A stretch of 64,000 bases of DNA from a candidate division WWE3 bacterium RIFOXYB1_FULL_43_24 (GCA_001773135.1 MEVX01000003.1:172-64171), one strand, 5' to 3'; positions 9,268 to 55,924 are shown, counted from the first letter of the stretch. A program made the numbers and translations. The notes: generated by a model not told the origin, from the letters alone.

Positions 9268-10431
9268 CTATGGGTTGATGCCGAGAATAAGGGATAATTC
9301 GGTATCCGCAATCTTGTTCCAACTATACTTTTTGACAAATTCCCGGGCTTTTTGGGCCATTTTTGCCCTTTCCGGCTCGTTTTCAAGAAGATACATTACT
9401 TTATCCAGTAAGTCCTTTTTATCGCCTGTTTTAGCGTAAATCACGTTGTCCTCCCAAACTGCCCTAAGCTCTTTTAAGTCATAGCAAACGACAGGAATTC
9501 CTGCAGCCATGGCCTCGCCGATGACTATTGCCCAGTTTTCCTCATAGGAAGGGAGTACAAATACCTTAGACTGCCACATCTTTTTGAATTTTTCCGCCGG
9601 ATCGTAAATTACACCGGCAAACTCGATGTTTTTATCCAAGCCCTTGTCAGTAGACATTTTTCTGGCCTCTTCTCCGTCGATACCCTCGCCGATAACTAAT
9701 AATTTAGCGTCGGGTTTTACTTTCATAAGTTCCGCCCAAATTTCCACCAAATCTAAGATCCCTTTTGTACGTTGAAGGCGTTTCATAAAGACAGCGTCGT
9801 ATTTTTTTTCTTCTCTTTCAGGAAAATACGAATTAATTTCATCAAAATTTACGCCACACAAAACAAAGTGAGCGGGTTTGCGGTTGAAAATAGAAGTTTT
9901 CAAAGCACTCAACGTATCTTCAGAAACAGGCAACAGCACGTCAGCGTTTAAATTGGCAAATAACAATCCCAGCCTTTCACTAATTAAAAACATTAGCGAA
10001 AAAAGAAAATTAGAATTTTTTCTTTTCCAAAATAGTGCGGGAGGAAGCCAATGAGTAACAACCCCGAATCTGATTTTGGAAGGACGAAACAACTTTAGTA
10101 AAAAACCCGGAAAAACATCGTAAATTTGTTCGCTGCCCGAGTACACGATACCTTCCTTGAAGGAAAATAATAGTGCGGGTAGATGAAAAAGCATCTTGAA
10201 AAATACTGCAATTATTTCCAGTCTGCCGATATTGGGAGAATTAGAAATACTGTGCAAAGTAACGGGTAGGCCCATTTTTTCACAAAGCACTTTTCCTGCT
10301 TTGCCGGACATCAGGTGGATTTCGTAGCCTTTTTTACTCCAACACTTCGCCAGTTCAATAAATCTGCTTTCTCCTCCGGTCACACCGGGCTCTGCACCTA
10401 CTATTGAGTTGGCTATAATTAATATTTTCAT
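9268..10431 (-). CDS. Glycosyltransferase family 4
   Basis: Translation is MKILIIANSIVGAEPGVTGGESRFIELAKCWSKKGYEIHL, with the GT1 domain VLPSYEENWAIVIGEAMAAGIPVV. Confidence 0.7.
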   Translation of the reverse strand: MKILIIANSIVGAEPGVTGGESRFIELAKCWSKKGYEIHLMSGKAGKVLCEKMGLPVTLHSISNSPNIGRLEIIAVFFKMLFHLPALLFSFKEGIVYSGSEQIYDVFPGFLLKLFRPSKIRFGVVTHWLPPALFWKRKNSNFLFSLMFLISERLGLLFANLNADVLLPVSEDTLSALKTSIFNRKPAHFVLCGVNFDEINSYFPEREEKKYDAVFMKRLQRTKGILDLVEIWAELMKVKPDAKLLVIGEGIDGEEARKMSTDKGLDKNIEFAGVIYDPAEKFKKMWQSKVFVLPSYEENWAIVIGEAMAAGIPVVCYDLKELRAVWEDNVIYAKTGDKKDLLDKVMYLLENEPERAKMAQKAREFVKKYSWNKIADTELSLILGINP

Positions 10432-14799: not shown

Positions 14800-15162
14800 T
14801 CAATACTCTTTGCGAACCAACAATATTGCAGTGCCGAAAAAGAAAAGAAACAGAGCCCAGGTGGATAATTTTTCAGCTAATACCTTAAGATCGAGTAATA
14901 AAACCAGCGGTATAAGACACAAACCAACTATAGCGGCGGTATATATAACTTCTACTCTAAACTTAAACCGTAACCACAAAATAAACCAAAACGTAAAATA
15001 CAGCCAAAAAACAAAATTAATAATATAGCCAGAAAACAGCAGATCACCGATAACTATGACAACAAAACACGTTAACAACCAAAAATCTATTTTTGATTTC
15101 CTATATAATTTATAAAGGCTCTTAGGTAAATTACTTACTAATTTAGTTATGCTTTTTTTCAT
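14800..15162 (-). CDS. Small membrane protein, hypothetical
   Basis: 120 aa with 3-4 hydrophobic helices. It overlaps the start of the upstream 1207-aa gene by 20 bp. Confidence 0.3.
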   Translation of the reverse strand: MKKSITKLVSNLPKSLYKLYRKSKIDFWLLTCFVVIVIGDLLFSGYIINFVFWLYFTFWFILWLRFKFRVEVIYTAAIVGLCLIPLVLLLDLKVLAEKLSTWALFLFFFGTAILLVRKEY

Positions 15163-18100
15163 GTTTCCGAATTAGTACCGTTACGATAAACAGTATAGCA
15201 GTTAAAATTAATGTGACAGTAGCGAGTGAGCAAACGTAAAAAATTCTCTGAGGCCAAAATTCTATTATCAACGTAAAATCCTCTCTTCCGACTACCGAGG
15301 GGTCAACAACCCATGCATTTGCAAAACCATTAGCGATGTAGTGAGTTTTTGGAAACATTGCCTGCTTACTCCAAGTATCTATTGTGTTTTCATCAAATAA
15401 TACATCATTTGATGATCTCTCCACGATATCACCGTTGAAATAACTTTTCGAACCGAACTGATGTCGTTCTGACTGATTAAATATATCGAAAAAAGCTTTA
15501 GATATCTTAGTCAAGGTGCTATACAAAACACCTGACTGATTTTTTCTATCCATGCCCTCTGCAGAGTATAACCGCCACCCACTGTGGAAATTCTCTTGAA
15601 ATACCAGATCAAACGTGCTGGTAGCTCCAGAAACATTTACTACATATTTCGTGGGGTTTACCCGCGTATAAGAGATTTTGGGAACAGCTCTATTAATACA
15701 CCCACCTTCCTGGATATAAGCAACGGGCGGTATCGACCTTTTTTTAACACTTAGATTTTTTATCAAAACATCAGATTTGTGTTCTTTTGCCTCAACAGGG
15801 GTTTTAATAAAGACATATCCATTTTCAGACTCCGAACTAGAAGTGAATGTTTTCTGAAAGTGAGAATAACAGGGCTGAGATTGGTCGACACAGTATGCGA
15901 ACCCAAAAATCTCCTCATTAAATATCTTTCGCCTTTGAACAGGAAACTCTCCTTTCCCTATCAAATCCCAATCGATAACACCTGTACCCCTATCAACTAA
16001 CGAGTAGTCTAGTGTATCTTCATATACTCCAACTTCTACGTTAACCATACTAGATAAATAATCAAAAGAGACAGTATACTCGGTACTAGTTTCCCAATCA
16101 TTTACCTGTTGAAATTTCGCTATGTCATTCACATCTAGCTGCGAGGTTTTAATTAGTTCTCTATTATCACTTTGAGTGAAGTCTGCACACTTCAATTCTA
16201 TCGTTGAAGTCGTGTCGTAAATGTCTGTTCTTAACTTACGCCAAGAACCCGATTCTTCCGTGAATAATTCATAGTTACCTTCCTTCGGTATATTGAACAC
16301 ATACTCACAACCCGCCTGCTCAGATACCCCGCCTATCCATTGTTTTATCTCCTCAAAAAGACTTATAGAATCAGATACTTCGGTGTACGGAATCTCACTT
16401 CTAGAACTCAGTAAATTTATAGATACGCCTGCATATGCGTAGAGCTTTTTCACCAGTCCCCAGTATGTATCGGGACTTATTTTTGGATTAAGATTGACTG
16501 AAGCTGAATGCTCATCGAGGCTAGTGCGAAGTGTGTTAAACGCAAATCTAATACCATTATTGAACCTAATAATGTTTTTAACACGATCGTCTCCTGTAAG
16601 ATTGTACTCCAAAATTTCTTGAATCCTTTTAGAGGAGTTCCATATTTCGTAATCTGTACGCACCAGCTTGTCGGGAGCAGAAACTAGTCTTATTTTTTCA
16701 CTGAGTAGCATAATGTCATGTCTAAAAGTTCTGGGCTGTTTCTCTACCTTCGGCCACACCCACCCTTTATTCCAAGTCAGGGATTCGAGATTAATTTCTG
16801 GTTCTTCATCGTTAATTTGACCGTATGATATTACCGGGCAATAGTTATCTTGTGAAGAATAAACCTCAGCTTGGTTAATTTTGTAAACCGTCCTTACATC
16901 GGGAAAATATACATCTCTCATATAAACAACGTCTTCATTTCTTCCAGTGCCATAAACAATGTTTTTTGGTATGTAAAATTTGGGCAGATACTCATCCTCA
17001 TTTACTGTAAAAACACAAAGTGCCGGTTGATTCAGCAATTTAACATAAAGCTCATTTCTAACGCTGCTGTCTGTATCCTTGTTAAGAACCTTTTCCAAGT
17101 ATGTCTGATCAAACTTACCGTATTTATGGGAACATTCCCCTAGGATTCGTTTCGTGTCACTTTCAATATTTTCAGGATTGCTATATCTAAACTCAAAATC
17201 CGATTGATAAAGAATATGCAGCACGTTGAAAAAACCAATGTTATCAACCTTATTCCGATACAATGCGTTGACAACTGCGTCGCCTTCGGTAGATAAAGTG
17301 TCTGTTTTCCTCAAAACCTGCAGGTTAGTTGCTATTTCTGGGTAAGGCCAAACCATATTTGCACCTTGCAACCAGTTGTAACTGTTCCCATAACCTCTAG
17401 ACGGAAGCAGCAAATAGTGCTCTTTTGTGGAGGCCTCGCTGATAAATTCTTCCCAATATTCCGGAACCTTTACTACGCTACCCCACTGACCTGCATTCCA
17501 CCTATCATAGTTTAATAAAGCTTTTACATCTAAAACTGGGGCAACATATACAAAGACTAAAAGGGCCGTAATCAAAAATACAAGAGTTTTTCTTTTCCTA
17601 AACCTAAGAAGCAGATATTGTACGGACAGCGCGAAAATGAGCGTAAACCCTAAAGAGTACAGTGCCATAAACTTAGTAAAAGGCTCTCTATAAGGCTTGA
17701 GGAAAACGGTATTGTTATAAAACAAATCATAAAGAAAACCAAAGGGGGCCTTTGTACCCAACACAAGAAACATACCTATTAGCGGAATCAAATACACCAG
17801 TACTGAGAGGTTTGCTCTTATGAGACGTAACTTTTTAATTGATTTAAAAAGGGGGTACGCTAAAAAACCCATAAATACAACTGAGTAGGAAGCTATTATT
17901 ACTAGGGGGAGCTGATAATACGAACTTGCAAGGTAATAAGGCTGCCCATTATGCCCGGAGTACCAAGACCACGAGCCCAGCATTCTAAAAAAATCGAAAT
18001 AATATCCGGACCCAAGTGAACTAAACATCTGCAGCCCGTTGTTGGTAGCTCTAAACGATACAAATAAGGAATCTACTACAAGGTATATCCAATATGAATT

Positions 18101-18766
18101 TATTAAAAAAATTAGCACCATTAAAACTAAGTAATAGATGATAAATTTTATCTCCAATCTAGATACTGTTAACAGATGGGTTATATAAACAAACGGGAAC
18201 ACGAGATAACATAGGGTATATAACGCAATATTTGAAGAGACCGGAGTTAGGAGATTAAATACTAAGAATAGTAGTAGATAGTAAAAATGTATCTTACGAT
18301 AAATAATACCGACAGATAAATGGAATATTATTGGAAGAGCCGCATAAAACATTACGTATGGAACAGATATTGGGTAAAGAACCCTAAATGGATTTAGTGC
18401 GTACAAAGCTGCAGACAAATATATACCGGTGCGACTAATATTAAGCAACGACCCCAGTAAGAGCCTCATACTAATATATGGGGCAAAGTAGAAAAATACC
18501 ATAAAAATCTGGGATATATAAATATCTAATGGGGTGTTTTTTAACAAAGCAATAAGCAGATTCACAATATTTGTGTTCAATCTCCCGAAGTTGGCACTAC
18601 TATCCCACAAGTAAGGGGTTAGGTCCCTTGCTAAAAACGTGTAATTTTCTCCACCACCTAGGGAGATATCTTTTTCCCAAAAAACAAAAAAGTATACACT
18701 TAGACCTAGCAAAATTAATATATCAAACACAAAACCAGCTTTTATTAAATCTTTTAGTCTATGCAT
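15143..18766 (-). CDS. Giant membrane protein with an N-terminal polytopic GT-C-like domain and a ~770-aa extracytoplasmic C-terminal domain
   Basis: 1207 aa. About the first 430 aa are multi-TM and the remainder is soluble and rich in W/Y/N. This architecture is reminiscent of AftD-like arabinofuranosyltransferases, but I cannot confirm the family. Confidence 0.5.
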   Translation of the reverse strand: MHRLKDLIKAGFVFDILILLGLSVYFFVFWEKDISLGGGENYTFLARDLTPYLWDSSANFGRLNTNIVNLLIALLKNTPLDIYISQIFMVFFYFAPYISMRLLLGSLLNISRTGIYLSAALYALNPFRVLYPISVPYVMFYAALPIIFHLSVGIIYRKIHFYYLLLFLVFNLLTPVSSNIALYTLCYLVFPFVYITHLLTVSRLEIKFIIYYLVLMVLIFLINSYWIYLVVDSLFVSFRATNNGLQMFSSLGSGYYFDFFRMLGSWSWYSGHNGQPYYLASSYYQLPLVIIASYSVVFMGFLAYPLFKSIKKLRLIRANLSVLVYLIPLIGMFLVLGTKAPFGFLYDLFYNNTVFLKPYREPFTKFMALYSLGFTLIFALSVQYLLLRFRKRKTLVFLITALLVFVYVAPVLDVKALLNYDRWNAGQWGSVVKVPEYWEEFISEASTKEHYLLLPSRGYGNSYNWLQGANMVWPYPEIATNLQVLRKTDTLSTEGDAVVNALYRNKVDNIGFFNVLHILYQSDFEFRYSNPENIESDTKRILGECSHKYGKFDQTYLEKVLNKDTDSSVRNELYVKLLNQPALCVFTVNEDEYLPKFYIPKNIVYGTGRNEDVVYMRDVYFPDVRTVYKINQAEVYSSQDNYCPVISYGQINDEEPEINLESLTWNKGWVWPKVEKQPRTFRHDIMLLSEKIRLVSAPDKLVRTDYEIWNSSKRIQEILEYNLTGDDRVKNIIRFNNGIRFAFNTLRTSLDEHSASVNLNPKISPDTYWGLVKKLYAYAGVSINLLSSRSEIPYTEVSDSISLFEEIKQWIGGVSEQAGCEYVFNIPKEGNYELFTEESGSWRKLRTDIYDTTSTIELKCADFTQSDNRELIKTSQLDVNDIAKFQQVNDWETSTEYTVSFDYLSSMVNVEVGVYEDTLDYSLVDRGTGVIDWDLIGKGEFPVQRRKIFNEEIFGFAYCVDQSQPCYSHFQKTFTSSSESENGYVFIKTPVEAKEHKSDVLIKNLSVKKRSIPPVAYIQEGGCINRAVPKISYTRVNPTKYVVNVSGATSTFDLVFQENFHSGWRLYSAEGMDRKNQSGVLYSTLTKISKAFFDIFNQSERHQFGSKSYFNGDIVERSSNDVLFDENTIDTWSKQAMFPKTHYIANGFANAWVVDPSVVGREDFTLIIEFWPQRIFYVCSLATVTLILTAILFIVTVLIRKHEKKHN

Positions 18767-23762: not shown

Positions 23763-23830
23763 TTTACTCTACCGGACTTTTTTGGTAGACTGTCCGCAGA
23801 AAATCAATCAAATCAGGTTAAGGAGGGGAG

Positions 23831-24031
23831 ATGTGGGAGTTCGTTTTTTCTGATAGGCACGGCTTTGAAACGGCCGTAAACCGGCTAAATCATAGCGACG
23901 TGCCGTCCTGGCTTCATTCTTTGGTCGAGCTACGGATTCTAATATATTCCGCTGACGACAAGGAATTCCTGCTTCAACAGCTGGTTCTTTTGGGAGTGCC
24001 GGAAACATCGTACCGGATTAAAAAAATATGA
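23831..24031 (+). CDS. Small protein P1 (66 aa), hypothetical. Paralog of P4
   Basis: AGGAGG sits 5 nt upstream. It aligns with P4 over its full length (M..F.F...F..A..L..SD..W..S..L.I.Y...D..FL..LVLLGV...YR). Confidence 0.6.
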   Translation: MWEFVFSDRHGFETAVNRLNHSDVPSWLHSLVELRILIYSADDKEFLLQQLVLLGVPETSYRIKKI

Positions 24032-24053
24032 CTGATTGAGAAGAGGTGTACGG

Positions 24054-24278
24054 ATGCATGAATGGGTACGTTTGCGGAAGAAACAGGATATGTCAGTAAT
24101 ACAAGCTCTTCTTGACGGGATGGAAGGAAGGGATTCGGAAGGATACATAATAGACTTCTGTACCAAAAATGTCCTACCCGGCTCTGAAAGGGACACTATG
24201 AGATTTAAAGAGGTACTGACGTCCCGTGGCATTCCGTTTGGACTTAAAGCAATAAAAATGGATGAGGAGGAAAAATGA
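24054..24278 (+). CDS. Small protein P2 (~74 aa), hypothetical. Distant paralog of P7
   Basis: The ATG has GAAGAGGTG upstream. The ORF track extends it to a TTG at 24036. The stop overlaps the P3 start (ATGA). It shares ..LL...EG...E...I.....M.RFK..L with P7. Confidence 0.5.
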   Translation: MHEWVRLRKKQDMSVIQALLDGMEGRDSEGYIIDFCTKNVLPGSERDTMRFKEVLTSRGIPFGLKAIKMDEEEK

Positions 24279-24493
24279 TCGTATTCTTTGACAACCAAGA
24301 GGGCCTGACCAAAGCCATAACGGTTGGGAACAAAGTGGGAATCTGCGATTGCGAAGACTTCAGGGTCGACGCGGCTCAAAACGCAATAGTGTTTGATGAC
24401 ACTTGCGAGGTGGAAATAACCGAGTTCATTTCTGCCCTGGAAAAGAATAACAACGGATCGGAGGAACTTATATACTTTCGAGCCAGATACTAG
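24275..24493 (+). CDS. Small protein P3 (72 aa), hypothetical. Paralog of P5
   Basis: A GAGGAGG SD lies inside the P2 3' end. It aligns with P5 (M..F....L..A..G..V....VDA..N.I.FD.....FISA.....E.IYF). Confidence 0.6.
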   Translation: MIVFFDNQEGLTKAITVGNKVGICDCEDFRVDAAQNAIVFDDTCEVEITEFISALEKNNNGSEELIYFRARY

Positions 24494-24499
24494 CCCGAT

Positions 24500-24539
24500 A
24501 AGCCCGTTGTTCCAACAAAAAACAACGGGCTTTCTTTTT
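24500..24539 (+). terminator. Rho-independent terminator T1
   Basis: The stem is aagcccgttgtt / aacaacgggctt with a 9-nt loop, followed by tctttttc. It is nearly identical to T2. Confidence 0.7.
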
Positions 24540-24552
24540 CGAGGAGGGACAA

Positions 24553-24798
24553 ATGTACAACTTTTTTTTCTTTACGGAAGAAGCGTTTTCTCTAGCATTG
24601 GAGAAACTTCGTAAGAGCGATAGGAATTGGTTTTACAGCTACAAAAATCTTCTTATCAGTTTTTACGAGGGTTGCGACGCCGATTTCCTGGTAGGAGAAC
24701 TTGTTTTACTGGGAGTTTCCGGCGGGGCATACAGACTGGAGCGCCCGGAAAGGAAGAAGGGAGGAACCGAATTAAAAACTAGGGGACGTGTTAAGTAA
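24553..24798 (+). CDS. Small protein P4 (81 aa), hypothetical. Paralog of P1
   Basis: A GAGGAGGG SD is present. It carries the conserved ELVLLGV...YR block and has a basic C-terminal tail. Confidence 0.6.
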   Translation: MYNFFFFTEEAFSLALEKLRKSDRNWFYSYKNLLISFYEGCDADFLVGELVLLGVSGGAYRLERPERKKGGTELKTRGRVK

Positions 24799-24847
24799 TA
24801 CATATCTTTTTCAGACATGTAGCCGGAATAGAAAGGCAAGGGAGGAT

Positions 24848-25072
24848 ATGTACTTAATTTTTGGTTCACCTGATGATTTGCGGAGAGCGATGCGGATTGG
24901 CGAAAGGGTGCACGTGTTTGAAAGTCAGCACTACACCGTAGACGCAGAAAAAAACCGGATAAACTTTGATCGTGACATCTATCCGGAAAAAGTCCGAAGT
25001 TTTATCTCGGCTATCAGACACGTTAACTCCTGCCCTGATAAAGAACCGATTTACTTTAGTACTGCTCATTAG
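24848..25072 (+). CDS. Small protein P5 (75 aa), hypothetical. Paralog of P3
   Basis: I chose the start at the ATG preceded by GGGAGGA. The ORF track extends it upstream to 24788 without an SD. Confidence 0.55.
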   Translation: MYLIFGSPDDLRRAMRIGERVHVFESQHYTVDAEKNRINFDRDIYPEKVRSFISAIRHVNSCPDKEPIYFSTAH

Positions 25073-25097
25073 GTTAAATTTTTATTAATGAAACCTT

Positions 25098-25138
25098 AAG
25101 CCCGTTGTTTCAACAAAACACAACGGGCTTTCTTTTTT
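25098..25138 (+). terminator. Rho-independent terminator T2, a duplicate of T1
   Basis: The stem is aagcccgttgt / acaacgggctt followed by tcttttttcg. It matches T1 at almost every base. Confidence 0.7.
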
Positions 25139-25180
25139 CGGAAGGCAGTCGTGCTTGTTTAAAAGAAGGGTTTTTCAAAG

Positions 25181-25209
25181 TTGTAAACAGCCCTTTATGC
25201 TGTTAGAAT
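25181..25209 (+). promoter_or_regulatory. Sigma70-like promoter (TTGTAA, 17 nt spacer, TAGAAT) upstream of P6
   Basis: The -35 element TTGTAA is at 25181-25186 and the -10 element TAGAAT is at 25204-25209. The spacer is exactly 17 nt. This sits about 38 nt upstream of the P6 ATG. Confidence 0.5.
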
Positions 25210-25247
25210 CCCATGCAGAAAGATAATCTGGAAAAAGGAGAGAAAAT

Positions 25248-25511
25248 ATGTCCGATACGATTATAAGGCTGTTGAAAAACGGCGGGTTTGGCTATATCCG
25301 CGGGGAAGACCTCTGCAAAAGCGACACGTGTGAGTATTATGTAAGCCGGGATAACGAGTGCTTTGGTAAGCAATCAGAGACCCATAACATAATGGTCAAA
25401 CGTGCGGGCCCAATCCTGCAGGTAACAGACTCTGGTGTTGAAAAGGCAGGGTGTAAATCCATAACCCGGGAGGATCTGATGACGGGAGATTATATCTCGG
25501 TAGAAGTGTGA
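25248..25511 (+). CDS. Small protein P6 (87 aa), 4 Cys, hypothetical
   Basis: An AAAGGAGAG SD is present. It carries CKSDTC...C...C and a GFGYIRGED segment. No paralog is seen. Confidence 0.55.
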   Translation: MSDTIIRLLKNGGFGYIRGEDLCKSDTCEYYVSRDNECFGKQSETHNIMVKRAGPILQVTDSGVEKAGCKSITREDLMTGDYISVEV

Positions 25512-25563
25512 AAAGAGGCATATCTCTCAAAGGGATTCGAAACTGACTGAATAAGGGGAGGAG

Positions 25564-25797
25564 ATGAAACATTTTTTGTCCTACGACAGCGCACGTGAAA
25601 TGAAAGACTATGTGGTCAAACTGCTCCAAACCGAGGGCTACAGCACAGAATACCTCAAAATTGAAATAGTAAGGGACAAACGGGGGTTTTTCATTGAGGC
25701 ATCCTCTGAAACTGACCCACAGATGGTAACACGTTTTAAACACCTGCTACGTGAACGATTGAGAACACTTCGCAGTGCCTTAAACCTAACAATCTAG
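25564..25797 (+). CDS. Small protein P7 (77 aa), hypothetical. Distant paralog of P2
   Basis: A GGGGAGGAG SD is present. Confidence 0.55.
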   Translation: MKHFLSYDSAREMKDYVVKLLQTEGYSTEYLKIEIVRDKRGFFIEASSETDPQMVTRFKHLLRERLRTLRSALNLTI

Positions 25798-25813
25798 GTG
25801 ATGGAGGGGGAAA

Positions 25814-26107
25814 ATGCTGACTAGGATAGAAGATTTACCGAGACGTGCAGTTGCTTATGCATCAGCCTCCGCGCTGATTTTGTACAGAGGAAACCTGTAC
25901 ATAAACTTCAAAACGGGAGTCAGCTTCTCACCCGATCCGGCTACCGGCAGGACAATGCGTTTTACAACTTTGGGATCAAGCGTAGTTGTATACGACTGCA
26001 CTTTGCCCCGTGAACTTGTTGTCCGTGTACTGGATAACTGGGATATTGCAGGCATGAGCTTTCGTCCTGTCGAAATAGAAGAGAGCCTTACCGGATATTC
26101 AAACTAA
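25814..26107 (+). CDS. Small protein P8 (97 aa), hypothetical. Paralog of P9
   Basis: A GGAGGGGG SD is present. It aligns with P9 at a constant 5-residue offset (LP...., G.L.IN, TLPRE versus TLPED). Confidence 0.55.
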   Translation: MLTRIEDLPRRAVAYASASALILYRGNLYINFKTGVSFSPDPATGRTMRFTTLGSSVVVYDCTLPRELVVRVLDNWDIAGMSFRPVEIEESLTGYSN

Positions 26108-26117
26108 GAGAAAAGGA

Positions 26118-26426
26118 GTGAAAATGTTTTTTCCGAGTGTACCTCTAAGGTTGCTACCCGCAAATTCTAGGGTATTCGTATCTCCGGGGGCGTTTGTGAA
26201 ATTTGAGGGAAAACTGCACATCAACCTCAATTCCTACATAAACGACGTCTATGACCCGGACCGTTATTTTACGGTCGAAGTCACGAGGTTAGAACAGGGC
26301 GTTCTGGTAAACATGAGCACTTTACCGGAAGATTTACGCCCGCCTGAGATCAATAACAAGACAATTATCGAAAAACACTTTAACCCGATTACTAAACAGG
26401 GTTTCAGGATAGTTGACGCCTGTTAA
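26118..26426 (+). CDS. Small protein P9 (102 aa), hypothetical. Paralog of P8
   Basis: An AAAGGAG SD is present. Confidence 0.55.
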   Translation: MKMFFPSVPLRLLPANSRVFVSPGAFVKFEGKLHINLNSYINDVYDPDRYFTVEVTRLEQGVLVNMSTLPEDLRPPEINNKTIIEKHFNPITKQGFRIVDAC

Positions 26427-26433
26427 AATGCTC

Positions 26434-26477
26434 AAAGCCGCGACGTTTAATAAAATAAACCCGCGGCTTCTTTTTTA
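26434..26477. terminator. Bidirectional terminator hairpin between convergent P9 and the radical SAM gene
   Basis: The stem is aagccgcg / cgcggctt with an ~19-nt loop. It is followed by cttttttac on the plus strand, and A/T-rich sequence follows on the minus strand. Confidence 0.45.
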
Positions 26478-26514
26478 CTCAAAAGCATCCTGCCTTTTTT
26501 ACTAAATGCACGTT

Positions 26515-28125
26515 CTACTCTTTTTTTGCAGTAACACTTCCGAACATACTCTTGAGTGCATTTCCCCAAAATTTCGGTGAAGTCCAATTTACCTTTGTCT
26601 GTTCTTTATCAAAATCTAATAAATGCCCTATCAACTTCCATGCCGAATACCATAAAAATCTTACGTCGTTAAGATTTCTGACAGAAAGTATTTTTCTGAA
26701 AATATACTGCGGTGTAAAAAAAGATGAGTACAAAGATTGAGTTAATTCATACAAACGCTCGTTTGAAAAAGGAATTTTCATCACCGGTGCTCTCATATCA
26801 AATTTCTCATAATCTTTTGCGTCAACCTGCAACCAATCTTTTTCTACACATTCTTTATATAAAGGTGTGCCGGGGTAAGGAATGACGATAGTAGCCTGCA
26901 TAGTGTCTACATAACCCTTTTTAAACAAATCTTTGGCCAAGTCTATAGTCTTTTGAGCCATTTCCTCGGTCTCCCAGGGATAACCCAACATAACGGTTAT
27001 GTGAGGTTCCAAACCTGCCTTTTTAGCTATTCTGGCGCCTTCTGCAATCTCCTCTACCTTCAGTCCTTTATCCAGTTTGTCCAAAGTAAACTGATTCGCC
27101 GATTCCATTCCGTATAAAATGAATCTGAAATTGGCCTTGTTCATTAATTCGTAGTATTCGGACGTAAGGGCATTCAGTCTCATGTTGCACCCGATGACTA
27201 CTTTTTTGTTGTACCCTGACTCGATTAACAGCTCACAAAACTTTTTCAACGGTGGTCCGACAAATAAAGTTCCGGCGTCATCGAATATTTCTTTAACACC
27301 GTAGTTATCGACAACATGTTTAACTTCGGCAAAAAGTCTTTCGGGAGAAAATCTTCTATAAAAACCCTGGGGATTTAACGTGTGATCCCAGACACAAAAT
27401 GTACATCTATTCCACCAACAGTCTCTTCCCGAATACATGTAGGTCGCCGGCGTATATTTATAATTTCCGTTCGCATACGCATAGAGTTTCCATTTTGTAA
27501 GGTCGCGGTCAACAAATGGAAGGTCGTCGAGATTATGTTGAAGTTCTAAAGGACCGCTTTGAAAGTACTCTTCTTCGCCGGATATTTCAGACTTGTGCAT
27601 TTTTAACCACTTGGGATCGATTGAAACTCTTTTGTCTCCTTTTCTACCATAGATTCCACCGGGCAAAAAAGTCTTATTTTTTATGGCATCCAGCATATCG
27701 CTTAGTAAAAAGTCGTAATCACCCCCTGTAATAATGTAATCGATTTTGCAGGCATCCAGGGTTTCTATGGGGTTCCAGGTTACATGGTCTCCGACAAGAA
27801 TGATTGTCATTTCAGGGAATTTCTCTTTTAACTCGTCAATTATTTTCCAGTGAAATTTCAAAACGGGAGCTTTGGTTTCCAGCATAAGGTAATCGGGCTT
27901 TTCGTTATCGAGCTCTGTGAGCCATTCTGCGTACGTTTTTTTCTCGGCAATACCGTCCATCCACACGACATCGTATCCGCGCTCTTTGGCTAAAGAGGCT
28001 GCGTAAGCCGGTACCATGGGATATATGTATGTCGGGGCGTTGAAATACTGGAACTGTCTGTTTTGAGACAGCAGGGGCACTCCTTTGAGTTGATCTATTG
28101 GAGGATAACCTATGACTAACTTCAC
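26515..28125 (-). CDS. B12-binding-domain radical SAM protein with non-canonical CX4CX2C spacing
   Basis: The N-terminus has a Rossmann-like B12-binding fold (IGYPPI...MTIILVGDHVTW). The radical SAM core carries RDCWWNRCTFCVW. The DNA reads GGA AGA GAC TGT TGG TGG AAT AGA TGT ACA TTT TGT on the minus strand, which confirms the spacing. Confidence 0.65.
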   Translation of the reverse strand: MKLVIGYPPIDQLKGVPLLSQNRQFQYFNAPTYIYPMVPAYAASLAKERGYDVVWMDGIAEKKTYAEWLTELDNEKPDYLMLETKAPVLKFHWKIIDELKEKFPEMTIILVGDHVTWNPIETLDACKIDYIITGGDYDFLLSDMLDAIKNKTFLPGGIYGRKGDKRVSIDPKWLKMHKSEISGEEEYFQSGPLELQHNLDDLPFVDRDLTKWKLYAYANGNYKYTPATYMYSGRDCWWNRCTFCVWDHTLNPQGFYRRFSPERLFAEVKHVVDNYGVKEIFDDAGTLFVGPPLKKFCELLIESGYNKKVVIGCNMRLNALTSEYYELMNKANFRFILYGMESANQFTLDKLDKGLKVEEIAEGARIAKKAGLEPHITVMLGYPWETEEMAQKTIDLAKDLFKKGYVDTMQATIVIPYPGTPLYKECVEKDWLQVDAKDYEKFDMRAPVMKIPFSNERLYELTQSLYSSFFTPQYIFRKILSVRNLNDVRFLWYSAWKLIGHLLDFDKEQTKVNWTSPKFWGNALKSMFGSVTAKKE

Positions 28126-28179: not shown

Positions 28180-28437
28180 CTATTTGTTCTCAGGGTACAA
28201 AACGTTACCTTCAAGATCTTCAACAATTATTGCTGTTGTCGGGCAGCTTTTAGCGCCTTTTATGATTTCTTCCGCTTCATTCCACGTGCCTTCTTTCGCG
28301 TAAACGATTCCATTGGGGTCAAGATCAAAAGTTTCGGGCGCATGTATTACACAGGTCGCCGCACTTATACATTTTTCATTTATAACTTTTATAATTACCT
28401 TTGAGTTTGGATTCCTATAAGTAGAGATCTCTTCCAT
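28180..28437 (-). CDS. Single-cluster [3Fe-4S]/[4Fe-4S] ferredoxin
   Basis: 85 aa. It carries CISAATC...CP (CxxAxxC...CP), which is typical of small single-cluster ferredoxins. It lies immediately upstream of the radical SAM gene. Confidence 0.6.
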   Translation of the reverse strand: MEEISTYRNPNSKVIIKVINEKCISAATCVIHAPETFDLDPNGIVYAKEGTWNEAEEIIKGAKSCPTTAIIVEDLEGNVLYPENK

Positions 28438-55234: not shown

Positions 55235-55554
55235 TTGCTTTTTTTAATTTCAATAACCTCACCTGACTTTTTATTTACTCTGTATTTCTTGCCGTCAATT
55301 ATTTTGTAACCGACTCTAATCGGGTCTCCGGACTTCTGGTCAATCAACATAACATTGGAGACATTTACCGGCTTCTCCATGCTTATAATTCCGCCCTCTT
55401 TTGAAACTTTGCCGGGTTTTACAGCTTTCTTTATTATGTTCACGCCTTCTACGACAACTTTTCCTTTGGCGGGGAACACCTTCAACACTTTTCCGGTTTT
55501 ACCCTTGTCTTTTCCTGCTATTACTTTTACTTTGTCGTCCTTTTTTATTTTCAT
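55231..55554 (-). CDS. rplX: 50S ribosomal protein L24
   Basis: I chose the start at [23 protein letters not shown], the KOW motif. The ORF track start at 55587 would overlap rplN. Confidence 0.85.
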
Positions 55555-55558
55555 ATGC

Positions 55559-55924
55559 TTACCAAACTTCCTTAGCCAAAGATACAATCTTCAAAAGTCC
55601 TCTATCTCTGATTTCTCTTGCAATGGGACCGAAGATACGTGTACCAATCAGGTTCCTATCTTTGTCTACAACCACTGCTGCATTGTCATCGAATCTAATA
55701 TAACTTCCGTCTTTTCTTCTGACCTCTTTTTTAGTTCTCACTACAATGGCTTTCACAACAGTGTGGTCTTTTACCGCACCTGCGGAATCGGCACCTTTTA
55801 CTACTGCAGTTACCAGATCACCTATCCTAGCAACGGTTTTTCTTGACCCTGGAATGCCAATTATCTTTAACTTCTTGGCTCCTGAGTTATCCGCTAGATT
55901 TACTGTAGTACCGATCTGTAACAT
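55559..55924 (-). CDS. rplN: 50S ribosomal protein L14
   Basis: Translation carries [23 protein letters not shown]. Confidence 0.9.

Follow-up and report, generated by a model that had tools for sequence, protein, structure and literature searches.

Capsule loci of Bacteroides carry the locus-linked regulators UpxY and UpxZ, of which UpxY is NusG-like. Here we describe a cluster of nine small genes inside an envelope-glycan locus of the candidate division WWE3 (Katanobacteria) bacterium RIFOXYB1_FULL_43_24, in a stretch of 64,000 nucleotides that was analysed as a whole and is hereafter called the window (GCA_001773135.1, MEVX01000003.1:172-64171). The cluster occupies positions 23763-26480 of the window and consists of nine plus-strand open reading frames (ORFs) of 66-100 aa, which span 23831-26426, while almost every large ORF between 1.1 and 54 kb lies on the minus strand. 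The products, P1 to P9, represent seven protein families in two fold classes, namely A (P1 and P4), P2, B (P3 and P5), C (P6), D (P7), E (P8) and F (P9). They are encoded in two transcription units of small soluble proteins with fast sequence turnover. Unit 1 is a polymorphic, recombining A-[P2]-B cassette that has its own putative promoter and a sequence-conserved terminator, and in the window it is present in two divergent tandem copies, P1-P2-P3 and the promoterless P4-P5. Unit 2 is the C-D-E-F operon (P6-P9). Long established and passed on by vertical descent, the cluster is confined to WWE3/Katanobacteria. No known family or system fits it; what is new is its description rather than a mechanism. 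All nine products are on deposit as hypothetical proteins of WWE3 Katanobacteria from Rifle aquifer bins (exact look-up), and we found no literature on the cluster.

Several described systems resemble it in part. The genes are, like those of UpxY and UpxZ, small genes of a surface-polysaccharide locus that diverge with it, which is an analogy only: neither KOW nor NusG nor any other regulator domain was found here, and the cluster has a mid-locus position on the opposite strand, not one at the head of the locus. Type II toxin-antitoxin modules and tandem immunity arrays share with it rapid evolution, deeply diverged alleles, and small gene pairs that have an operon of their own and occur as divergent tandem copies, and the A-B genes are, as in type II modules, a co-transcribed or overlapping small pair (P2 and P3 overlap by ATGA; A and B overlap in one relative, L013). 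However, the cluster matches no toxin, antitoxin or immunity model, it has a fixed syntenic site instead of a patchy distribution, and C to F are without counterpart in such modules. Precursor arrays of ribosomally synthesized and post-translationally modified peptides (RiPPs) also consist of several small paralogous ORFs beside a B12-binding radical SAM enzyme (B12-rSAM), but here folded domains are predicted for the products, the genes converge on the rSAM gene, and the latter is part of a glycan operon. With regard to integron-type cassettes and their attC-like hairpins, every A-B cassette closes with a conserved hairpin, at which two recombination breakpoints are located. However, this hairpin has a terminator U tract, stands after B only, and is accompanied by no integrase among the genes scanned within 10 kb of the cluster.

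Two further comparisons concern predicted folds. P2 and B share theirs with the stand-alone ferredoxin-like small domains of beta-alpha-beta-beta-alpha(-beta) topology (ACT/RAM, the Atx1/HMA metallochaperones and the ring-building motifs of PrgK/EscJ/secretin), but they have no Pfam or NCBIfam match, no CxxC of the HMA type and no recognisable conserved ligand-binding motif; the similarity is that of a very common fold and has little functional meaning. The only structures that resemble C, E and F are actinophage proteins of similar size, A0A6G5YFK0, A0A1I9SAK7 (Rhodococcus phage Weasels2) and U5PXJ5 (Clavibacter phage CN1A), although sequence identity to them is 7-13% and profile comparison is not significant.

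Gene content and family relationships

The original prediction, made from the DNA sequence of the window, was of nine small ORFs led by Shine-Dalgarno (SD) sequences and running against the strand of the surrounding ~50 kb, and the ORFs, the SDs and the orientation were all found. Every ORF is preceded at 5-10 nt by a GGAGG-type SD, that of P2 (AAGAGG) being the weakest; lengths and coordinates refer to the most plausible ATG starts, and all nine genes are on the plus strand. The type-1 cassette contains P1 (23831-24031, family A, 66 aa), P2 (24054-24278, 74 aa), whose stop overlaps the P3 start, and P3 (24275-24493, family B, 72 aa). In the type-2 cassette, P4 (24553-24798, family A, 81 aa) stands directly behind the first terminator, T1, and is followed by P5 (24848-25072, family B, 74 aa from its ATG). 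P2 is confined to type-1 cassettes. Unit 2 comprises P6 (25248-25511, family C, 87 aa), P7 (25564-25797, family D, 77 aa, with a basic C-terminal helix), P8 (25814-26107, family E, 97 aa) and P9 (26124-26426, family F, 100 aa from its ATG, with an alternative GTG at 26118). None of the nine proteins has transmembrane segments or signal-like stretches, and the B proteins are acidic to neutral. The alignments give no sign of a catalytic motif, since most invariant positions are hydrophobic or occupied by Gly, Pro or Asn.

P6 is shortened in the window by a TGA that lies 13 codons ahead of the ancestral stop. Its orthologs have 96-101 aa and end in ..SKGF(E/D)P(D/E), a C-terminus kept in every other lineage. 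Read against L006 and other orthologs (relatives are designated here by L numbers), the in-frame remnant behind the premature TGA, KEAYLSKGFETD and a stop codon (25512-25550, plus strand), still fits this pattern. The TGA is common to all Rifle contigs read, and it is either a nonsense mutation of recent date or a codon that is read through.

Four pairs of paralogs had been proposed. When each pair was aligned by the Smith-Waterman method against 500 shuffles, P1/P4 (z 19.5), P3/P5 (z 17.1) and P8/P9 (z 14.7) were borne out with 0/500 shuffles each, whereas P2/P7 was not (z 2.5, 17/500), nor was the latter pair rescued by family profiles (hhalign E 0.027, probability 1.8%). P6, previously taken for a singleton, has relatives within the cluster: once its distant orthologs were added, the C profile matched the P8/P9 profile over 84 columns (hhalign probability 94.3%, E 1e-7). 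Judged by these sequence comparisons, P6 joins the P8/P9 superfamily as a distant paralog, and the number of pairs falls from four to three. Among the small alpha/beta families, the hhalign comparisons A/B, A/D, B/D, P2/A and P2/D gave E values of 0.007-0.5 and probabilities of at most 5.5%, which leaves a shared origin unproven. P2 forms a separate, old family, and one lineage has it fused to B.

Promoters, terminators and operon layout

The predicted layout, [P1 P2 P3]-T1-[P4 P5]-T2-promoter-P6-P7-P8-P9-T3, holds, as the hairpins fold and the promoter was found and is conserved in relatives. A further promoter of the A-B unit (TTTACT-17 nt-TAGACT, 23763-23791, plus strand) stands back to back with the minus-strand gene for a YdjM-like protein. 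It is termed putative because it falls below the threshold of the consensus scan; the motif pair is nevertheless kept upstream of A in L006, L010, L011, L013, L015 and L017. The promoter of the C-D-E-F unit, TTGTAA-17-TAGAAT with an upstream TG (extended -10), was detected by the consensus scan at 25181-25209 and is followed by a conserved 5' leader up to 25247, the whole element (25181-25247) being on the plus strand. Promoter and leader are kept in all Rifle-type relatives, including L010 despite its loss of C. In the latter (9442-9775), the C gene is gone, while the promoter, the 5' leader and the SD remain and are followed by an ORF of eight codons (ATG..TGA).

Each A-B cassette ends in a hairpin followed by a U run, T1 (24499-24541, plus strand; -19.7 kcal/mol, z -4.3) and T2 (25097-25140, plus strand; fold z -4.5). 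These are the two copies of a 41-nt direct repeat (24499-24539 and 25097-25137) that are 95% identical at a spacing of 598 bp, and this internal pair is the only direct repeat found. The third hairpin, T3 (26435-26477), is located between the convergent P9 and B12-rSAM genes and folds on both strands, with -16.0 kcal/mol (z -3.9) and -20.1 kcal/mol (z -4.1), so it is likely a bidirectional terminator. Taken together, T1, T2 and T3 have 11-15 base pairs followed by U runs and z scores of -3.9 to -4.5 versus shuffles. Rfam has no match in the region.

The stem of T2, GCCCGTTGT/ACAACGGGC, is kept in all Rifle-type lineages. Between L015 and L010 the terminator after B is 97.5% identical, compared with 69-78% for the coding flanks there, and by such alignments no other DNA of the locus, coding or not, is as well conserved. 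Besides ending transcription it may have a second role, perhaps as a site of protein binding or of recombination. In the hairpins downstream of B from the window and from L005, L006, L010, L011, L013, L015 and L017, the stem has no compensatory changes. A search with the hairpin pattern gave 13 occurrences in IMG/VR, which were set aside, this being by a rough estimate about the number expected by chance for a split palindrome of 18-19 bases.

Distribution and synteny of the cluster

Relatives were gathered by exact look-ups, genome and metagenome scans, word-indexed protein searches and an exhaustive HMMER search. The same cluster was found at the same site in all ~8 WWE3 lineages recovered, between a family 2 glycosyltransferase (GT2) gene (73-90% identical) and the rSAM gene (81-95%). 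Its strand is always opposite to that of the flanks, the order A (P1/P4)-[P2]-B (P3/P5), C (P6)-D (P7)-E (P8)-F (P9) is fixed, and the last gene of the cluster is convergent with rSAM in every lineage found. The E/F family forms 13 clusters among 5.8 billion proteins and has 11 representatives among a further set of 1.84 billion, while B forms 12 clusters. Neither protein set contains a relative outside WWE3, and all named members of the families are annotated as WWE3, Katanobacteria or Patescibacteria.

The content of the cluster varies among these lineages. Of the forms seen, the window alone has two A-B cassettes. L006, a strain that is ~90% identical, possesses P1-P2-P3 and C-F without P4-P5, whereas L010 has a single cassette of the P4/P5 type and has lost C. 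L013 lacks E, L028 and L046 consist of B, C and F, and L029 has A, a P2-B fusion, C and F. C has been lost in L010, E in L013, both D and E in L028 and L029, and A in L028. The fused gene of L029 (7250-7687) joins a P2 homolog (41% identical) to a B domain in a protein of 145 aa. Another fusion accompanies F in L047, a short contig that leaves the upstream content outside it: here (153-647) an N-terminal domain of ~90 aa, designated X, is fused to D in a protein of 164 aa. The D part is assigned by hhalign with a probability of 98.7% and E 1.6e-16; assignment of the N-terminal domain to A or B was tried and gave no match. The cluster is at a fixed site, and only its P4-P5 sub-unit varies between strains.

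Selection, divergence and recombination

The nine ORFs are coding genes under purifying but relaxed selection, because their dN/dS ratios (Nei-Gojobori, where dS is unsaturated) are 0.11-0.37, compared with 0.03-0.04 for rSAM. For example, the L006 orthologs of P1 and P2 are 79% and 88% identical with dN/dS of 0.30 and 0.37, and the L010 orthologs of P4 (missing from L006) and P5 are 70% and 74% identical with dN/dS of 0.14 and 0.21, respectively; the ratio is 0.15 for P6 and 0.23 for P7. Between lineages, identity ranges over 20-79% for A, 21-89% for B, 24-89% for C, 48-88% for D, which is the most conserved small family, 35-89% for E and 22-91% for F, versus 81-95% for rSAM. A and B exist in at least five deeply diverged types (20-40% identity), and no DNA similarity is left between the types even where both flanks align. 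Indeed, the original prediction of a duplicated and diversified multi-component small-protein system agrees with genes that are under purifying selection, paralogous, conserved as a set and without a family match. In the comparison of the window with L006, dS is 0.14-0.41 in the small genes (23831-26426) and 0.68 in the adjacent rSAM gene (26515-28125), which hints at different histories of the adjacent segments or at codon constraints.

Three comparisons point to recombination at the locus. The P4-P5 indel that distinguishes the window from L006 is bounded exactly by the T1 and T2 copies. L017 and L018 are 98.8% identical rightwards from the hairpin and unrelated leftwards. Finally, when L005, a co-occurring Rifle strain, is compared with positions 24641-26857 of the window, a switch occurs inside P6 at ~25,418: to its right, from P7-P9 into rSAM, the two are 100% identical, and to its left (P4, P5 and the start of P6) they are 75-88% identical, which indicates recent recombination within the population. 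Because of these three cases we regard the locus as a recombination mosaic in which the hairpin is a preferred junction, with two of the three breakpoints (L017/L018 and L006/window) located at the conserved terminator after B. The use of the hairpin as a junction reflects either a sequence-specific function or merely the longest shared stretch.

Predicted structures and database searches

An AlphaFold model of P9, built from 14 family sequences (pLDDT 85.9, pTM 0.74), has a mostly beta domain and a C-terminal helix, and C, E and F, which are homologous, are predicted to be beta-rich domains of ~95 aa that have no counterpart in the PDB. The P2-B fusion of L029 was modelled with AF2 as two consecutive beta-alpha-beta-beta-alpha modules (pLDDT 87.8), and P2 and B are accordingly predicted to be generic small ferredoxin-like modules. 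Both models are compact, with pLDDT ~90 except in the last 4-5 residues. In A and D, hydrophobic strands alternate with amphipathic helices, and their hhalign scores versus P2 and B are weak; they may also be ferredoxin-like.

A Foldseek search of BFVD with the P9 model retrieved the three uncharacterized actinophage proteins named above (E 2.5e-4 to 2.6e-3, TM 0.60-0.66). In sequence comparisons hhalign gave E values of 0.05-0.1, and hmmsearch did not rank the CN1A protein CN1A_69 first. U5PXJ5 is probably CN1A_69, the sole 95-aa coding sequence of this phage, whose small gene lies in a region of small early-type genes.

Scans of the nine proteins against Pfam, PHROGs, PADLOC and NCBIfam produced matches at chance level only, as did all 16 members of the E/F family against Pfam and PHROGs; the sole PADLOC match was to Cmr3 (P9, E 0.039), again at chance level. 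Sequence profile searches of the PDB with families A, B, D and E/F gave nothing below E 0.03, scans of IMG/VR for sequence relatives were negative, and tblastn against 50,697 phage records returned chance hits only. Two candidate similarities were rejected. A cold-shock/OB motif seen in P6 (GGFGYI) is not conserved in the family, and the P9 model has no OB or SH3 match. P0042, a T/S/V-rich repeat protein of 2208 aa from an unrelated source, matched the E/F family in 10 stretches (E 2e-5), and the match was judged compositional because a strand of the 'GVLVN.ATV' type recurs in its T/S/V-rich repeat. It should be noted that P0042 and E/F share the hairpin motif 'TV.VT....GVLVN..T'.

Possible roles of the cluster

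The reading that we put first, though tentatively and with less than even confidence, is that the products form an accessory complex, regulatory or scaffolding, of the envelope-glycan locus. The proteins would be binding modules and not enzymes, because the invariant positions are structural residues. They would assemble into hetero-oligomeric complexes, as suggested by the P2-B and X-D fusions, the overlapping or tight gene spacing and the presence of three homologous beta-domain proteins in one operon. Such a complex would regulate, or act as a scaffold for, the cell-envelope glycan pathway encoded around it. This role is proposed because the cluster is fixed at the junction between a conserved arm of the locus (B12-rSAM, ferredoxin, GT2, GT2, Wzx and PMT_2) and a variable arm, with the A promoter back to back with the latter. 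In that case the rapidly diverging A-B part would move together with the variable arm and C-F together with the conserved one; the L017/L018 pair, which is unrelated left of the terminator, is in line with such a link to the variable arm. The promoters, the 5' leader and the terminator are common to several lineages, which likewise favours an accessory complex.

Several observations weigh against this proposal. The link to glycan synthesis is one of position, and co-location is inseparable from shared ancestry because synteny extends over the entire neighbourhood. Compared with the enzymes that they would assist, the small proteins diverge 5-10 times faster (20-70% versus 73-95% identity), and we know of no precedent for accessory proteins of this kind. 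The losses of members and the truncation of P6 fit dispensable or conflict-driven genes at least as well. Finally, the hetero-oligomers are postulated from the arrangement and fusion of genes, and the ferredoxin-like folds of A and D are predictions from sequence.

Nearly as probable as the accessory complex, though likewise with less than even confidence, is a conflict system. Here a phage-derived, defence, anti-defence or toxin-antitoxin-like module would have been domesticated and would reside at a recombination hot spot within the surface-glycan locus, with A-B as a polymorphic specificity or immunity pair and C-F as phage-like small binding proteins. The very fast divergence relative to the flanks speaks for such genes, as do the five or more A/B types that retain no DNA similarity, the cassette content that differs between otherwise near-identical strains, the presence/absence variation of members and the second, promoterless A-B cassette that stands in tandem here. 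The resemblance of the P9 model to three actinophage proteins, with CN1A_69 in an early-type region, points in the same direction, but this phage likeness is structural only, and neither the IMG/VR scans nor tblastn of phage genomes yielded a relative. Nor do PADLOC, PHROGs or the toxin and antitoxin models of Pfam and NCBIfam provide a match, and the cluster has no enzyme-like effector. The B proteins are acidic to neutral, whereas most RNA-targeting toxins are basic, and the position and order of the genes are fixed across lineages in which dS is saturated, unlike those of mobile defence or toxin-antitoxin cargo.

A further and more novel reading, which we consider unlikely, is an undescribed hetero-oligomeric small-protein machine specific to Katanobacteria, made of ferredoxin-like modules and a new beta-rich fold shared with actinophage early proteins, and engaged in phage-host or symbiont-host conflict at the surface-glycan locus. 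Its A-B alleles would be ancient, maintained by balancing selection and swapped via the hairpin after B.

Flanking genes

All called genes with a Pfam hit within 10 kb on either side of the cluster belong to glycan pathways, and none of them is a mobility gene. One flank contains two GT2 genes and genes for a double methyltransferase, a GT1 and the YdjM-like membrane protein. The other contains genes for the B12-rSAM enzyme, a ferredoxin, two GT2, a Wzx flippase and PMT_2 proteins, of which B12-rSAM, ferredoxin, GT2, GT2 and Wzx make up the rSAM operon. The B12-rSAM gene (26515-28125, minus strand) has HpnJ as its top NCBIfam model (E 3e-45), which, like every other NCBIfam match of this protein, is far below the model cutoff. 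It encodes a very conserved enzyme inside a variable glycan locus. Between it and the next GT2 gene is a gene for an 85-aa 4Fe-4S ferredoxin (28183-28437, minus strand; Fer4_13/15/19), whose product is 92-94% identical in the compared relatives and presumably supplies electrons to the rSAM enzyme.

That the small proteins are substrates of this enzyme, either RiPP-like precursors or modified proteins, is very improbable. Several small paralogous ORFs beside an rSAM gene are the classic picture of a RiPP locus, the convergence of the last cluster gene with rSAM is constant, and the enzyme is weakly similar to RiPP C-methyltransferases (ApyD, E 1e-19; rSAM_ocin_1, E 1e-12). However, its top model is HpnJ-like, the genes converge on rSAM across the T3 hairpin and are not co-transcribed with it, rSAM is in an operon of its own, and neither a protease nor an exporter adjoins the cluster. 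P9 and P2-B are predicted to be compact over nearly their whole length (pLDDT >85), not of leader-plus-core architecture, and the supposed substrates are 20-70% identical between lineages versus 81-95% for the enzyme.

Further features of the flanking regions are as follows. An ORF of 1207 aa in the glycan cluster (15143-18766, minus strand) has no Pfam hit at E <= 0.001, and a comparably large protein of 1244 aa at the far left end of L011 and L012 is likewise without a Pfam hit. In L001 (6221-7164), two ORFs of 202 and 120 aa stand in place of the upstream GT2 gene, which is intact on the other contigs of the same population; the break is either a frameshift or an assembly error.

Composition and origin of the cluster

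The cluster had been described as compositionally distinct. The offset is real, with a GC content of 44.2% versus 40.7 +/- 2.0% in windows of the same size (+3.5 points, ~1.8 SD), but it is modest, being reached by 3.3% of such windows. The adjoining GT2 gene has 44.0% GC. Pooled over the cluster, GC at third codon positions (GC3) is 49.3% versus 41.9 +/- 3.5% for 45 large ORFs (~+2 SD), a value equalled or exceeded by two host ORFs, one of them on the plus strand (55355-55846). The bin names carry the numbers 42 and 43, which by the naming habit of the project we take to be bin GC percentages; if so, the cluster is presumably near the genome average and the glycan genes are below it.

The suggestion in the original prediction that the genes were plausibly acquired horizontally finds no support, as the cluster is syntenic in ~8 WWE3 lineages with a flanking rSAM gene that is 81-95% identical, the window has no tRNA gene, the Pfam-recognised genes within 10 kb include no mobility gene, and the GC offset is small. 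Recent horizontal acquisition in particular is argued against by the same site and fixed order in these lineages. We give very little credence to a recently acquired genomic island or moron: its strand opposite to the flanks, its elevated GC and GC3 and its strain-level indels and mosaicism would suit such an origin, but the gene order and insertion point are identical where the flanks are saturated at synonymous sites, the distribution is not patchy, the window contains no tRNA gene, only glycan-pathway genes are recognisable within 10 kb, GC is inside the host-gene range and the 5.8 and 1.84 billion proteins hold no relative outside WWE3.

Implications

Bacteria of the candidate phyla radiation have tiny genomes in which a large share of the genes lacks an assigned function, and one such set of genes is precisely described here. 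Across Katanobacteria lineages the set has stayed at one locus, with sequences that diverge several times faster than the enzymes encoded next to it. The cluster offers small soluble targets for structural and interaction work, and it illustrates cleanly how cassettes are exchanged in nature at a conserved hairpin. If its products form a conflict system, it would be of a new kind, situated inside a phage-receptor locus. If they serve the glycan pathway as an accessory complex, they would reveal a new level of control or assembly in organisms reliant on surface contact with hosts.

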